Sequence record: OQ446694.1
Reading direction: 5' to 3' (one strand)
Source: Escherichia phage Killian
Length of the DNA stretch: 64,000 nucleotides
Notes under the pieces: model-generated
Told to the model about the DNA's origin: nothing
The model's database searches: none
What the model saw: the letters and a program-made list of their open reading frames with translations, nothing else
Position numbers and translations under genes: made by a program
Part shown: positions 3,971 through 17,684 of the stretch, piece after piece
Position numbering within the stretch: the stretch's first letter is position 1
How the letters are laid out: each line of letters starts with the position of its first letter

Positions 3971-4440
3971 TCAGCCTTATATTCAATAACAGGACATACT
4001 TTAGCTTTACGAGCTTTTAAAAATTCGACGATAATAGATTTCTTGGGTTGAATAGGAGGTAAACCTTTATACGCCCTATCAATATTTTCTACATGTAAAG
4101 CATAATCCTTTTTCCATTTATAATCTTTATATTTTTCATGCAATTGTGCAGGAATAACAAATGAACCGATAATAAGTAAAACAAGCAAAATGGCAAGTAT
4201 AAATGCTGCTGGAATAAGAGTCCATAAACTACCAAAAATAAGCCATTTCTGTATGATTTCTGCACAGATGATAGTTAGACCTGCGAGTATAGTACATCCG
4301 AAAAAAGAAACGAAAAATGTAGGAATAACAATAGACCAAAAATACGCGCATAGTGTCTTAGGCCGTTTCCATTCATCATTAAACATTTTGAATAATTTAT
4401 AGTGCCAAGAGCTTTCATTAATAATCATAATTATAATCAT
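3967..4440 (-). CDS. Integral membrane protein (157 aa, 2-3 predicted TM helices)
   Basis: Long hydrophobic stretches (FWSIVIPTFFVSFFGCTILAGLTIICA; LIPAAFILAILLVLLIIGSFVIPA). Confidence 0.55.
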   Translation of the reverse strand: MIIIMIINESSWHYKLFKMFNDEWKRPKTLCAYFWSIVIPTFFVSFFGCTILAGLTIICAEIIQKWLIFGSLWTLIPAAFILAILLVLLIIGSFVIPAQLHEKYKDYKWKKDYALHVENIDRAYKGLPPIQPKKSIIVEFLKARKAKVCPVIEYKAE

Positions 4441-4958
4441 CCTTTCATTGAAGGTGTAACAGTTGTTAAATACTTAATCATAGCTTCAGCTTCTGATTTT
4501 GATAATGAAATTTCTCCATTGTTTTGACGAATAGAAATAAAATCTGGATGACGGTCACCACCAGCTTTCAAAACACACATATAAGTATCAGTTTCATCTT
4601 CAATATTTGAAATGATTGAAGCAGTTCCACATGAATGCGGTTTTTGATAAATCAATACGGCTTTTCTTCCACCGTTTGACTGTTCATAAACTTTTAACAC
4701 ATCAAACAAATCACTTCTTTTATCAATAGCTAAGATGTTGTTTTCATCTTCAATGTTAAATCCTTCGGATACTTCATAAAGTGTCACCCATAAATCACCT
4801 ATATCGATAGTAGCATTTTCCTTTCCATGACTTTCAAGAGTATGACAAATTTTCTTGATTTCGTCATAACTCATTTTAATAATATCATCTCCTTGAATAA
4901 GGAAGATGTCATTTTTAAATTCAACACGAATTAAACCACTTTCACTTGAAATAAACAT
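4437..4958 (-). CDS. Hypothetical protein (173 aa), paralog of the adjacent gene
   Basis: C-terminus SKSEAEAMIKYLTTVTPSMKG resembles C-terminus of 4965..5522. Confidence 0.55.
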   Translation of the reverse strand: MFISSESGLIRVEFKNDIFLIQGDDIIKMSYDEIKKICHTLESHGKENATIDIGDLWVTLYEVSEGFNIEDENNILAIDKRSDLFDVLKVYEQSNGGRKAVLIYQKPHSCGTASIISNIEDETDTYMCVLKAGGDRHPDFISIRQNNGEISLSKSEAEAMIKYLTTVTPSMKG

Positions 4959-14222: not shown

Positions 14223-14678
14223 TTAAAAGAGGTTGTTCATTATTCTGTAAAGTGAAGGACCCATCACATATTGCCACTGAGTACGAGGAATAAGAGCAAA
14301 AGCATCCATCTCTGGAATCATAACGCCATCTTTATTTTCAAAATAAGACTCGCAATGGCAATTTCTAAACATCTCATGCTCTACTGGAATCGTATAATAA
14401 AATAACTGTAAGTCTTTATTACTAGAATATTTAAATACACCTAAGTCTTCTAGAAGGTCTGGATTATAATTGCTAAAGCCAGTCTCTTCTAAGCATTCTC
14501 TTCGTGCTGCATCTAGTGCGCTTAAATCAGAACTTTCTACACGCCCCTTTGGAATATCCCAGCGATGTGCCATCATTCCAGGCTTACGAGAACCAGTAAC
14601 CCGTCCCATGAATAAATCTTTATCTTCTGTCATAAAGATAATACCAGCTGATAGTGTTTTCATTTTAATTTCCTGCAT
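14223..14678 (-). CDS. nudE: Nudix hydrolase NudE
   Basis: 151 aa; Nudix box GRVESSDLSALDAARRECLEETGF. Confidence 0.85.
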   Translation of the reverse strand: MQEIKMKTLSAGIIFMTEDKDLFMGRVTGSRKPGMMAHRWDIPKGRVESSDLSALDAARRECLEETGFSNYNPDLLEDLGVFKYSSNKDLQLFYYTIPVEHEMFRNCHCESYFENKDGVMIPEMDAFALIPRTQWQYVMGPSLYRIMNNLF

Positions 14679-15148
14679 TCAGTGATAAAGTTATTTAAAT
14701 TTTGAGTATATTTCTTTTCATCAAAAATCTTTTGTTGTCTGCGCATCCGCCATGGCATTTCAATGAACATGTACCATATTCCTGATAATATTGATGCTGT
14801 AAAAATATTAACAAGTATGGTTAAAAGAATCCAATCTCCTATTCTGTCCATTGGATTTTTTATAAAAAAGTAAAATACGAATGATGACACAGGAAGACTA
14901 ATGATATACCACAGAATCATAATCTTATCTGTGAACCATTCAGCATTCGTTAACTTAGCACGACCATTATGAATACACACGAATTTATCATCTGTTACAG
15001 TAGATGGCTTAACTGCTTGATATCCCATTCTAAACTCCCTAATTAATCGTTTCTTTGTATCTTCAGAACAGCCGCTCCAGTCAACTCTATCAACTGAAAT
15101 GCCATCGTCCCCATCATCTAAATCATACCAGTGAGTTTTTAAAATCAT
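14660..15148 (-). CDS. Membrane protein (e.2 position), C-terminal FITECRKLK tail
   Basis: Two hydrophobic helices; C-terminal motif shared with the next three genes. Confidence 0.55.
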   Translation of the reverse strand: MILKTHWYDLDDGDDGISVDRVDWSGCSEDTKKRLIREFRMGYQAVKPSTVTDDKFVCIHNGRAKLTNAEWFTDKIMILWYIISLPVSSFVFYFFIKNPMDRIGDWILLTILVNIFTASILSGIWYMFIEMPWRMRRQQKIFDEKKYTQNLNNFITECRKLK

Positions 15149-15519
15149 TTAATTTTCCTACAATCACTCACAAACTCTTCCATTGATTCTTTTTCAATAT
15201 AAGACATATAGCTATTATATTCCTTTAATTGTATTTTGTAATCCTTTTTTCTTTGCCAATTTATTTTAAAATTATCATAATGAAAATATAACATGGTACC
15301 AAAGAATGAAAATAATGAAATTGCTATAGTATAATGAAGTTCACTCCAAACTTCTATTATATCTACTATACCGCTGACGTTACTGCGGATGTTTAAAATA
15401 AAACAGTCAATTAACAATCCAATAAAACTACCCGCAAGAGCTGCAGCCAATGCCACAGCAAAAATTGAAAATGACTCAGAAAAAGAATATTTGACTTTAT
15501 TTAGTTTTGGCTTTTGCAT
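15145..15519 (-). CDS. Membrane protein (e.3 position), C-terminal FVSDCRKIK tail
   Basis: Two TM helices; shared C-terminal motif. Confidence 0.55.
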   Translation of the reverse strand: MQKPKLNKVKYSFSESFSIFAVALAAALAGSFIGLLIDCFILNIRSNVSGIVDIIEVWSELHYTIAISLFSFFGTMLYFHYDNFKINWQRKKDYKIQLKEYNSYMSYIEKESMEEFVSDCRKIK

Positions 15520-15893
15520 CGTGATTCCTTAACAAATTTCATAATTTCATCAAATTCATACATATCTAGCTTAAGCTGGTGTTCCTTTTTAATCTTTTTA
15601 CACTGAGCTTTCCAATCACGTACACGTTTACGATAATGTCTTCCTTGATACCAGTATCCTACCCAATTTACAGGTACTAATAAAAGCGGAACTACCAATG
15701 GAAGAATTAGTGTTGCTCCAAATATTACACCAGATTCAATATCAGTCATAACGTCTATAACCATTCCAGCAATCACCAAAATCACAAATGATACAGCTAC
15801 CACAGGACCTATTAACACATCAGTAGAAATTAGCTGACGCTTTGGTTCATACTTCACGGGTTTACTTGGAAGGTATAGTGATGGCTTTGACAT
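15501..15893 (-). CDS. Membrane protein (e.4 position), C-terminal FVKESRCK tail
   Basis: Two TM helices; start uncertain (overlaps 3' end of upstream gene). Confidence 0.5.
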   Translation of the reverse strand: MSKPSLYLPSKPVKYEPKRQLISTDVLIGPVVAVSFVILVIAGMVIDVMTDIESGVIFGATLILPLVVPLLLVPVNWVGYWYQGRHYRKRVRDWKAQCKKIKKEHQLKLDMYEFDEIMKFVKESRCKSQN

Positions 15894-16476
15894 ATTCTCT
15901 ACATTCCTTAACAAATTTTTCTAATAATAAATCGCTTTCAAAATTGGGATTTTCTACGAATTTATCAAAAAGATCATCAACAATAGTTAAGATATTCTTT
16001 TTACTAAGAATACGCTTATTTTCATATTTTGTTTCAGAGTCAACTATAAGAGTAAAGAAATATTTCTTTCCCTGAAATTTTACCGTAGTATCAATATAAA
16101 ATAAATTTGATTTTTGTAAATTACGTTTAAACCATGCATCACTTAAACTATAAACGCCAAGATAATCATAATCGTCGTTTAAATAACAAACCGTCCATTC
16201 AGGAGAAATGAAATCAGTAAATTCAACATCAAAATCACACGTCAATGAATGAATTGATTCAATACTGTTAATGAGTATTCCAGGACGTATTAAAGACTTT
16301 TTACCTCTATAAAATCTTCCAGAAAGACTTTCATCAGTTTCATATGAAGACCCCCAATAGTAATTACGTCCTTCTGCCATGCGTTTAAGAGCATTTAGTA
16401 ATTGGTCTGGAACATCAACCTGTCTTTGGAACTCTTCAAACATTGAATTGAAATCACTTTGCATTTTCATTTTCAT
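15862..16476 (-). CDS. Hypothetical protein (204 aa, e.5 position), C-terminal FVKECREYVK motif
   Basis: ORF track; shares the F-V-K-E-C-R motif near the C-terminus. Confidence 0.55.
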   Translation of the reverse strand: MKMKMQSDFNSMFEEFQRQVDVPDQLLNALKRMAEGRNYYWGSSYETDESLSGRFYRGKKSLIRPGILINSIESIHSLTCDFDVEFTDFISPEWTVCYLNDDYDYLGVYSLSDAWFKRNLQKSNLFYIDTTVKFQGKKYFFTLIVDSETKYENKRILSKKNILTIVDDLFDKFVENPNFESDLLLEKFVKECREYVKAITIPSK

Positions 16477-16495
16477 TCCTATTTACTCCAAGTAT

Positions 16496-16513
16496 AAGGG
16501 GCCGAAGCCCCTT
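16496..16513 (-). terminator. UUCG-tetraloop hairpin (AGGGGC-UUCG-GCCCCU); RNA stabiliser or weak terminator
   Basis: Identical hairpin sequence recurs at 58245..58262; no strong U-run. Confidence 0.5.
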
Positions 16514-16517
16514 ATCA

Positions 16518-17111
16518 TTATTTCAGAGAATTAATGTATTCCTGAACATCGGCAGAGGTAGTTTCAACCCCAGAAATATTACCATTAAAGGTTTCAACTC
16601 GAGCAAGGGTATCTTCAATATCAACCTTAGTCAGTGCTGCAATTTCAACTACATCATCGGCAGTACTAATTCCAAGGGCATTTGCCGCACGAGTTTCACG
16701 GATATATTCCAATTTAACTGCAAGCTCTTGACGAGCATCATCTAACTCAACTACTTTCTTGGCGATTTCAATTCGCATTTCAGCATAACCGTCAGCCTTA
16801 GTAGTCAACTGCTCAGCTGTTCGACGATATAGTAAACCGAGTTTAGCATGCATTGTTACATCTTGACCTTCGGAAAGAAGTTTACGAATTTCACGCTCTT
16901 TTGATTCAGCCTGTCGATTCTTTTCGACAATAAGTTCACGAATACGTTTTTCTTCATTAATAGATTTAACAGAAGCAGTTTTTAGATCTTTAATTTTATC
17001 AAGCAGTTTTGCTGCTGCAGCAGTATACTGTTCTTCAACAGATAGATTTTTAGCCATAGCAGAACCAAGTTTAGTGCGAATAAACTCAACAATTTTCTTT
17101 AGTGTGTTCAT
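16518..17111 (-). CDS. Coiled-coil protein (197 aa, e.6 position), PspA/IM30-like features
   Basis: Heptad-rich charged sequence; weak resemblance to PspA family, inference only. Confidence 0.5.
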
Positions 17112-17153
17112 AGTATTTCCTTAAGTTGATTAAAAATAAAATCTGTGAAAGAA

Positions 17154-17684
17154 TTATATCATACTATTTAAGAGATGTAAACTATTTTTAATTTTACAAA
17201 TTCGTTCAGCTTCTTCAACAGCGGCGGCGATAATGCTTTTAGCTATAGGAGTATTAATACTAGTAGCTTTTACACTTAACACGATTTCTTTATCTTTACT
17301 AGGCCAACCCCACGATTTTTCACCATGAGTGCCTTTAATTACAGCAGACACCTCAAGTGAGCATCCATTATCACATGTTTTTACATTAACAACCCAAGGG
17401 TCACTTTTCTCAACCGGTTTATCAATCGGTTTATCCCAGTAAATATTAAGAATACGTGGGACATCAAATTTAGCAGGGCAAATCTTAACCGTAAGACCTT
17501 CGCTTTCTAGCCAATTAATAAGAGGGCGTTCATACATGCGGCGATGTGGGCTTCGGACTCGACAAGCCTTGTGCCCATTGCTTGCGGCTTCACTAAGCTG
17601 TTCTAATACCTGCTTTTGCATTATTGATAAGATACCATCAAAAGATTTTTCGGAAGTTTCATTCAGTTCTGTATAAAGAGACAT
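17154..17684 (-). CDS. Hypothetical protein (176 aa, e.7 position)
   Basis: ORF track; GAGGAAA SD. Confidence 0.55.
   Translation of the reverse strand: MSLYTELNETSEKSFDGILSIMQKQVLEQLSEAASNGHKACRVRSPHRRMYERPLINWLESEGLTVKICPAKFDVPRILNIYWDKPIDKPVEKSDPWVVNVKTCDNGCSLEVSAVIKGTHGEKSWGWPSKDKEIVLSVKATSINTPIAKSIIAAAVEEAERICKIKNSLHLLNSMI

Follow-up and report, generated by a model that had tools for sequence, protein, structure and literature searches.

Why should four neighbouring phage genes, three of them for predicted membrane proteins and the fourth for a soluble one, end in nearly the same dozen residues? The genes are e.2, e.3, e.4 and e.5 in a 64,000-nucleotide (nt) stretch of Escherichia phage Killian DNA (record OQ446694.1; this whole stretch is the window below), and an earlier note took their common ending for the sign of a duplicated, diverging family of membrane-associated proteins. 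On the sequence comparisons given here, it is instead a C-terminal module of about 12 residues, hydrophobic-x-x-F-[IV]-x-x-C-R-[KE], conserved at the level of the peptide, predicted to lie in the cytoplasm and carried by early proteins that are transcribed together and come from at least three unrelated families.

Over the 2.3 kb around the four genes, identity to Escherichia phage UGKSEcP2 is 99.7%, and 506 Tequatrovirus (T4-like) records match at 90-99.7%. Since the flanking genes are also those of T4 (denV, ipII, e for lysozyme, and nudE), the four are T4 e.2, e.3, e.4 and e.5. The whole unit is on the minus strand, with transcription running e.6, e.5, e.4, e.3, e.2, nudE, so that the genes, which had been placed downstream of nudE, are upstream of it in the sense of transcription. 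From e.5 to nudE the reading frames overlap by 32, 19, 4 and 4 nt, and a Shine-Dalgarno sequence, AAGGAA or AGGAAA, sits 5-10 nt ahead of each ATG within the upstream open reading frame (ORF). Judged by these features, the chain has the form of a translationally coupled overlapping operon (stop/start overlap, as in ATGA, plus internal Shine-Dalgarno) at all four junctions. One omics data set (PMC9697503 supplement) counts the RNAs of T4 e.2-e.6 as early and gives a protein expression class to each of the five products.

Re-derivation of the ORFs gave the same four tails as had been quoted. Among the 524 window ORFs of at least 40 amino acids, counted from stop to stop (45,351 residues), F-[VI]-x-[ED]-[CS]-R occurs four times, solely in these tails and each time within the final 20 residues of adjacent e.2, e.3, e.4 and e.5; in e.5 it is followed by 11 further residues, which overlap the start of e.4. 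Another 100 kb of T4 sequence has it at no ORF C-terminus. The motif was drawn up with these very genes in view; its recurrence in orthologues from other genera is independent of that choice.

Such recurrence is extensive. Mosigvirus orthologues keep the tail at 34-52% overall identity (e.5 ...QFIMECREYVK..., e.4 ...EFVKEIRCKSLNS, e.3 ...NFIKECRK), and there are two more carriers in that genus, a 101-residue hairpin protein (...NFIKECRGK) and e.2 (...RFITECRNLR). The e.2 proteins of Dhaka- and Gapriverviruses, at about 30% identity, end ...FI[KE]ECRK, and 8 of the 12 last residues are invariant in e.2 orthologues of about 31% identity. To locate the island in other genera e.6 was used as anchor: it matches 1,106 phage records, Aeromonas phages included (down to 51-53% identity there), and about 45 loci were read of the approximately 1,100 records with e.6. 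A tail-bearing protein of e.5 type follows e.6 in Klebsiella, Enterobacter, Bragavirus and Aeromonas phages, the sole exception among the loci examined being RB43, with a truncated e.6, where no e.5 relative was seen. At most of these loci one to four tailed proteins with two transmembrane (TM) helices come next, and some soluble island proteins of 92-131 amino acids bear the tail too. When 22 IMG/VR loci with e.6 as anchor (tblastn identity to the window e.6 60-100%, Enterobacteriaceae-infecting relatives) were counted, 46 of 530 coding-strand ORFs had [FW][IVL]xxCR within their last 22 residues, as against none of 217 on the opposite strand. In a scan of IMG/VR for FIxECRK followed by a stop, real ORFs were found only in T4-like coliphages, the remaining matches being short chance ORFs; a word-indexed search with e.4 returned only Tequatrovirus-level relatives and the e.4::e.2 chimera described below.

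An e.5 profile from which the tail has been trimmed joins the proteins of T4, Mosig- and Klebsiella-type phages, Aeromonas phage AS-zj and, more weakly, Dhakaviruses. When 14 e.5 relatives (14-46% identity) are aligned, N100 and C192 alone are invariant, and F188 nearly so. The first of these sits in a [SA]-x-x-[ALFM]-N-[DE] stretch and is a candidate functional site of e.5. At the C-terminus of e.6 the hydrophobic spacing is the same as in the tails (hydrophobic-x-x-aromatic-I-x-x-hydrophobic-K); whether that ending is related to them or is a generic helix pattern is uncertain.

Descent of the bodies and of the tail

If all four genes came from one duplicated gene, the tail could be its best-preserved remnant, and the architecture of three of them fits. 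Two TM helices each had been predicted for e.2, e.3 and e.4, and hydropathy and charge distribution bear this out (residues 78-97 and 106-129 in e.2, 17-41 and 61-80 in e.3, 28-50 and 57-75 in e.4), as does the AlphaFold2 model of e.4 (mean predicted local distance difference test score, pLDDT, 66), a hairpin with helices 24-49 and 54-106 and a last short helix, 111-128, that holds the motif. In these proteins the short acidic loop has 0-1 Lys plus Arg residues, the N-terminal part 4-12 and the C-terminal part 9-15, from which both ends are predicted to be cytoplasmic, and with the hairpins so placed all four tails would face the cytoplasm. A two-TM hairpin followed by a basic cytoplasmic segment, helix and tail is thus common to the three, though e.2 has in addition its own conserved soluble N-domain (1-77). 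In e.5 there is no hydrophobic helix; its AlphaFold2 model (pLDDT 62, predicted template modelling score 0.62) is alpha/beta with a closing helix, 183-198, in which the motif lies.

For the bodies of the proteins the comparisons diverge. Smith-Waterman alignment with shuffling gives z=6.7 for e.3 against e.4 over the full length, z=4.6 for e.2 against e.3 from TM2 to the end, and no similarity of e.5 to any of the three (z<=0.74). With shallow profiles hhalign matches e.2 and e.3 in the tail alone (E=3e-5, 15 columns), finds a weak 36-column match of e.3 with e.4 (P=18%) and nothing for e.2 with e.4. The last 16 residues were then cut from every ORF and broader profiles built from the approximately 45 loci of other genera, iterated hidden Markov model (HMM) searches being run against 1,581 ORFs of both strands with those of the opposite strand as decoys. 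The e.4 body family so obtained reaches Mosig-, Dhaka-, Gapriver- and Klebsiella-type phages with zero decoy matches; a bridging paralogue (locus L065) is found by the e.4 profile (6.8e-5) as well as by that of e.3 (5.6e-4), and the latter profile reaches a Dhakavirus e.4-type protein at 5.3e-3. Tail-trimmed hhalign of e.3 with e.4 gives P=77% and E=2.1e-5 over some 96 columns, as against E=0.024-0.11 for reversed controls, and the two N-termini share MxKPxL...VKY. Because of this match beyond the controls, the bridging sequence and the shared N-termini, e.3 and e.4 are probably true paralogues.

The same treatment leaves the e.2 hairpin at control level against e.3 or e.4 (E=0.011-0.017), and no link from the e.2 body to either is made by the iterated HMM search. 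As for e.5, it is a family of its own that reaches Aeromonas phages. On sequence, then, e.2 and e.5 share only the tail with the others. The duplicated, diverging family of the earlier note survives for e.3 and e.4 and not for e.2 or the soluble e.5; similarity confined to a few C-terminal residues, which it had named as the outcome that would speak against it, is what is seen for e.5 and e.2 and not for e.3/e.4. When all tail-bearing proteins are compared by BLASTP after trimming they fall into at least 12 unlinked clusters, spread over several Straboviridae genera and with small soluble proteins included. Since soluble as well as membrane proteins of the island in other genera carry it, the tail is best described as a shared peptide module and not as a mark of whole-gene paralogy.

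Existing classifications already hold the genes apart. PHROGs place the four in four families (2203, 2330, 2604, 2607), and e.2, e.4 and e.5 are split among three families by precomputed Pfam assignments (Phage_T4_Y06M, Y06O and Y06P), those of e.4 and e.5 having been made on proteins 94-98% identical to the ones in the window and that of e.2 by way of a match to the C-terminal part of the e.4::e.2 chimera (P0098). These are the same genes, treated there as unrelated and of unknown function; the tail, the paralogy of e.3 with e.4 and the island-wide distribution are not captured.

Descent of all four from one gene could also draw on the DNA, in which similarity is unbroken over the e.5/e.4 and e.4/e.3 junctions (AAATTTGTTAAGGAAT...ATG(T/C)CAAAGCCA), and on natural in-register hybrids that are viable. 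In phage vB_EcoM-UFV05 (OP555981.1) a deletion has removed e.3 and the N-domain of e.2 to give an e.4::e.2 hybrid of 106 amino acids (P0098; L074:1501-1821), joined at a 6-nt microhomology, TCCTGT, that encodes the Pro-Val opening TM1 in both genes; the order is e.6, e.5, hybrid, nudE, and the hybrid is present on five contigs. The 16-nt identity of the e.5 and e.4 tails (AAATTTGTTAAGGAAT) is not relied on as proof of recent duplication, since identical residues together with T4 codon bias could yield it (the Mosigvirus pair is less alike). Given a soluble alpha/beta e.5, an e.2 with its own N-domain and a hairpin at control level, the many unlinked clusters and the separate PHROG and Pfam families, a single ancestor for all four genes is quite unlikely, though the homology of e.3 with e.4 beyond the tail stands.

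Peptide and ribosome-binding site in the same nucleotides

Each tail in the window embeds the Shine-Dalgarno sequence of the next gene, as AAGGAA in the Lys-Glu codons of e.5 and e.4 and as AGGAAA in the Arg-Lys codons of e.3 and e.2. The codons might then be conserved because they serve the next translation start, or as a recombination joint, with the peptide incidental. The ATGA or 19-32 nt overlaps at the junctions suit such an explanation, and so does a complete 168-kb T4-like genome (L006:4959-5400 and 4001-4620; IMGVR_UViG_2974787500_000001) from which e.2 is precisely missing. There e.3 ends ...EFVIDCRKLK and runs into the e.2/nudE junction sequence, which places the crossover within TG(T/C)AGGAAA of the e.3 and e.2 tails, and both the e.3 frame and the nudE ribosome-binding site are intact: one clear example of a gene removed from the island with reading frame and downstream ribosome-binding site kept. 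(In the same genome e.5 is frameshifted.)

The codons themselves speak otherwise. Arg in the tail is taken from both codon families (AGG, AGG, CGA and AGA in the window, CGT in Dhaka- and Gapriverviruses), Cys is TGT or TGC, and the codons for Phe, Ile/Val and Glu/Asp vary too. The Shine-Dalgarno sequence falls on different motif residues from gene to gene (K-E, R-K or R-G-K). The Klebsiella-type relatives of e.5 have another 13-14 codons between the end of the motif and the stop, which puts the motif well ahead of the next start, and for this reason the tail cannot be a ribosome-binding site alone.

Polymorphism agrees with this. By a crude Nei-Gojobori count in a small sample of 10-12 Tequatroviruses, the ratio of nonsynonymous to synonymous differences per site (pN/pS) is 0-0.18 in the tails and 0.34-1.2 in TM1, loop and TM2. 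Synonymous differences in the tails (pS 0.12-0.22) are like those in the rest of the genes, with lower values only in the e.4 tail (0.048), where the frames overlap, a point for conservation at the RNA level, and in the part of e.5 that overlaps e.4 (0); the e.2, e.3 and non-overlapping e.5 tails combine normal pS with pN near 0. The tail is thus, from these counts, under purifying selection as a peptide. With codons so diverse and pS normal, RNA-level conservation is rejected as the main cause, and an incidental peptide is very unlikely. The Shine-Dalgarno sequence is, by its position, a real second function of the tail nucleotides which does not explain the peptide: coupled chains need no conserved peptide, and here it is conserved beyond the needs of the RNA signal.

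Short conserved sequences at gene boundaries in variable regions of T4-type genomes have a precedent in PeSL cassettes (promoter-early stem-loops), which mediate modular shuffling there (PMC2839356, PMC4122927), and in L006 the tails have once served in a like way. PeSLs, however, are an intergenic promoter plus stem-loop; here the sequence is coding, includes a ribosome-binding site and is conserved at the amino-acid level. Nor is a PeSL seen in this unit, as there is no intergenic space from e.5 to nudE and the sole stem-loop, between e.6 and e.5, leaves no room for a promoter after it.

What the tail may do

Our preferred reading, to which we give a probability of about one half, is that the tail is a docking or assembly helix on proteins of the e.6-to-nudE unit, by which e.5 and the hairpins bind a common partner or each other. 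The helix would act at the cytoplasmic C-terminus; soluble e.5 and interchangeable membrane hairpins would be held through it to one shared partner or mutually, and an early complex would form at the inner membrane, with the TM and periplasmic parts of the hairpins, which vary, as the face that evolves fast. The tail lies in the last helix of both the e.4 and e.5 models, and the residues spaced as hydrophobic-x-x-F-x-x-x-C-x-x-hydrophobic match the a and d positions in two heptads. Short C-terminal docking peptides on unrelated proteins are known from T4 itself, in the sliding-clamp-binding tails of gp43, gp33 and gp55. Like them, the peptide here is short, conserved, C-terminal and carried by otherwise unrelated proteins of one phage, although its sequence is another and several of its carriers are membrane proteins.

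In e.4 the TM1-loop-TM2 part is the most variable stretch of the protein among Tequatroviruses. It is mosaic, with variants (P0086-P0090) only 66-73% identical overall; residues 76-130 are almost invariant (pN/pS 0.10-0.15 as against 0.7-0.8 in the TM/loop part).

Several observations weigh against a docking helix. The hydrophobic moment of the tail only slightly exceeds that of shuffled sequence (p about 0.1-0.26), so that "amphipathic helix" depends on the a-d spacing and the models, and both models are of low confidence (pLDDT 62-66). In e.4-type tails Ser, Ile, Val or Met takes the place of Cys, with F, I/V and R/K retained, and the tails may for that reason not all act alike. The pattern is also short, and its recurrence could in part reflect tails that are carried along with the start region of a neighbour when genes duplicate or move.

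A further possibility is that the proteins are independent of one another, for instance separate exclusion or anti-defence factors, and that the tail is a sorting, stability or degradation signal read by a host factor. Number and identity of tail-bearers vary freely between genera, TM and loop regions evolve fast, and single genes can be lost; in T4 itself e.2 is frameshifted. In T4 strain 147 it is split by a 1-nt deletion in an A-run (T6/A5, as against T6/A6 in the window at 14853-14870; L002:3860-4347), and the T4 reference annotates it as 309 bp, a 102-residue N-terminal product, with TM2 and the tail in another frame (the window e.2 is intact at 162 amino acids). What counts the other way is that an e.5 relative follows e.6 at every locus examined except RB43 and keeps its tail even in Aeromonas phage Riv-10, where no tail-bearing hairpin is nearby. 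We know, moreover, of no likeness of the tail to C-terminal degrons or sorting signals. Independent proteins with a common host signal are on balance unlikely.

The conserved Cys invites a chemical role (redox, metal-bridging or sulfur transfer) and would suit the "sulfurtransferase" label found on e.3 and e.4 in some GenBank records. C192 is the same in 14 of 14 e.5 relatives, the Cys of e.2, e.3 and m101 tails is kept, and "CRK" presumably resembles a rhodanese active-site loop. Searches of Pfam, NCBIfam and PHROGs, though, show no rhodanese or other enzyme domain, other residues stand for the Cys in e.4-type tails as described, and the tails are predicted to face a reducing cytoplasm; chemistry at this residue is highly improbable. 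The sulfurtransferase/rhodanese name was itself rejected for e.3 and e.4, which have no Pfam or NCBIfam match at E<=1 and are two-TM hairpins of 120-130 amino acids with a replaceable Cys. "Site-specific RNA endonuclease", another GenBank name, and "host specificity protein" (e.6) and "putative phosphoserine phosphatase" (e.5) likewise have no Pfam, NCBIfam or PHROG backing.

If the docking helix is taken one step further, the tails would amount to an assembly code, in which e.5, perhaps with e.6, plugs by its F...C-R helix into exchangeable two-TM anchors. These anchors would be e.2, e.3, e.4 and their counterparts in other genera, their TM and periplasmic faces evolving fast, and recombination at the tail, which also carries the next ribosome-binding site, would swap, duplicate or delete them in frame. 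This extension is tentative and, taken as a whole, doubtful; to our knowledge no such arrangement has been described for T4. Were it true, there would be a modular early membrane complex with exchangeable host-facing subunits, conserved across several Straboviridae genera.

As to the biological role, exclusion, counter-defence and membrane remodelling are possible candidates. The earlier note thought of superinfection-exclusion or membrane-targeting accessory functions; nothing in these comparisons supports exclusion. The T4 superinfection-exclusion proteins Imm and Sp are likewise small, early-expressed, non-essential phage membrane proteins, but have no sequence relationship to e.2-e.5: tail-trimmed e.2, e.3 and e.4 profiles find no match to either in the ORF database, which includes the T4 imm/sp region, no link of e.2-e.5 to them is made in PHROG or Pfam, and both lack the shared tail in the C-terminal motif scan of 100 kb of T4. 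We know of no exclusion phenotype for e.2-e.5. Searches of Pfam, NCBIfam, PADLOC and PDB sequences gave no match of e.2-e.5 to a known family or to defence or anti-defence proteins, and no structure in PDB is convincingly related to the e.5 model. A PspA/IM30-like hub was considered for e.6 and set aside; it has no Pfam match, its PDB profile search brought up neither PspA nor Vipp1, and hhalign against an approximate E. coli PspA sequence gave P=0.3%. In the literature searched for T4 plus these gene names, no functional studies of e.2-e.6 were found, nor any description of the shared tail, of the relationship of e.3 to e.4 or of a conserved core in which e.6 and e.5 are joined by an e.4-type hairpin.

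Among the many T4 early genes without assigned function, e.2-e.6 are thus given a concrete lead. The shared peptide predicts a common partner or mutual assembly, with F188, C192 and R193 of e.5 and their equivalents as candidate key residues, and the comparison across genera defines a conserved core (e.6, e.5, e.4-type hairpin) and a variable periphery. Should there be no common partner, labels such as "sulfurtransferase" and "host specificity protein" are still corrected.

The unit and its neighbourhood

The features of the unit are collected in the table. The strong promoter-like site upstream of e.6 is the probable early promoter of the unit.

Table. Features of the e.6-to-nudE unit in the window and, in the last two rows, of neighbouring genes at loci of other phages (positions there prefixed by the locus)
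Feature	Position	Strand	Remarks
nudE, Nudix hydrolase, 146 amino acids from ATG at 14663	14223-14663	-	Last gene of the chain
e.2, 162 amino acids, tail NLNNFITECRKLK	14660-15148	-	ORF; Pfam Phage_T4_Y06M, PHROG 2203
e.2 tail LNNFITECRKLK	14663-14698	-	R-K codons AGGAAA (14669-14674) are the nudE Shine-Dalgarno
e.2 stop overlapping nudE ATG (ATGA)	14660-14663 region	-	
e.2 TM1 (14858-14917), acidic 8-residue loop, TM2 (14762-14833)	14762-14917	-	Hydropathy, charge
e.3, 124 amino acids, two-TM hairpin, predicted basic cytoplasmic C-terminal segment, tail	15145-15519	-	PHROG 2330
e.3 tail MEEFVSDCRKIK	15148-15183	-	AGGAAA (15154-15159) is the e.2 Shine-Dalgarno; ATGA junction
e.3 TM1 (15397-15471), loop, TM2 (15280-15339)	15280-15471	-	
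e.4, 130 amino acids from ATG, two-TM hairpin, long basic helix, tail	15501-15893	-	Pfam Phage_T4_Y06O, PHROG 2604
e.4 tail IMKFVKESRCKSQN	15504-15545	-	K-E codons AAGGAA (15525-15530) are the e.3 Shine-Dalgarno
e.4/e.3 overlap, final 19 nt of e.4		-	
e.4 TM1 (15744-15812), 6-residue acidic loop, TM2 (15669-15725)	15669-15812	-	
e.5, 204 amino acids, soluble alpha/beta, tail LLLEKFVKECREYVKAITIPSK	15862-16476	-	Pfam Phage_T4_Y06P, PHROG 2607
e.5 C-terminal helix LLLEKFVKECREYVKA	15883-15930	-	AAGGAA (15904-15909) is the e.4 Shine-Dalgarno
e.5/e.4 overlap, final 32 nt of e.5		-	
GC-rich stem-loop ATAAGGGGCTTCGGCCCCTTAT between e.6 and e.5	16494-16515	.	Labelled terminator in phage e11/2
e.6, 197 amino acids, predicted coiled-coil-like	16518-17111	-	Conserved first gene of the unit
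Promoter-like TTTACA-17-TATAAT upstream of e.6	17153-17181	-	11/12 matches, with TG
Second array of tailed soluble paralogues	L001:3857-4651; L045:3278-4327; L052:6362-7612; L073:4799-5325		
228-residue protein before e.2	L038:778-1464; L009:2222-2908; L010:2234-2920; L046:1743-2429		

Two neighbours of these genes are found in other genera and not in the arrangement described here. A highly conserved protein of 228 amino acids (MNGPKTFNS...HHDDVPRP...EFPMEGW), which has no Pfam match, stands directly before e.2 in Mosig-, Dhaka-, Gapriver- and Kanagawaviruses and is missing from Tequatroviruses. A second array, absent from the window, consists of small soluble paralogues with another C-terminal tail, G-W-[VI]-S-S-S-x-x-C followed by the stop, and directly follows the e.4/e.3-type genes in Mosig-, Dhaka-, Karam- and Klebsiella-type phages.

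Two starts deserve comment. A TTG start of e.4 at 15914 extends the frame upstream; in related phages the annotated start is the ATG, which has a ribosome-binding site. T4-type annotations often begin nudE at an upstream ATG (MQEIKMKT..., 151 amino acids), which arises from the Glu-Cys codons (GAATGC) of the e.2 tail (14661-14678). The ATG at 14663, after AGGAAA, looks the better start.

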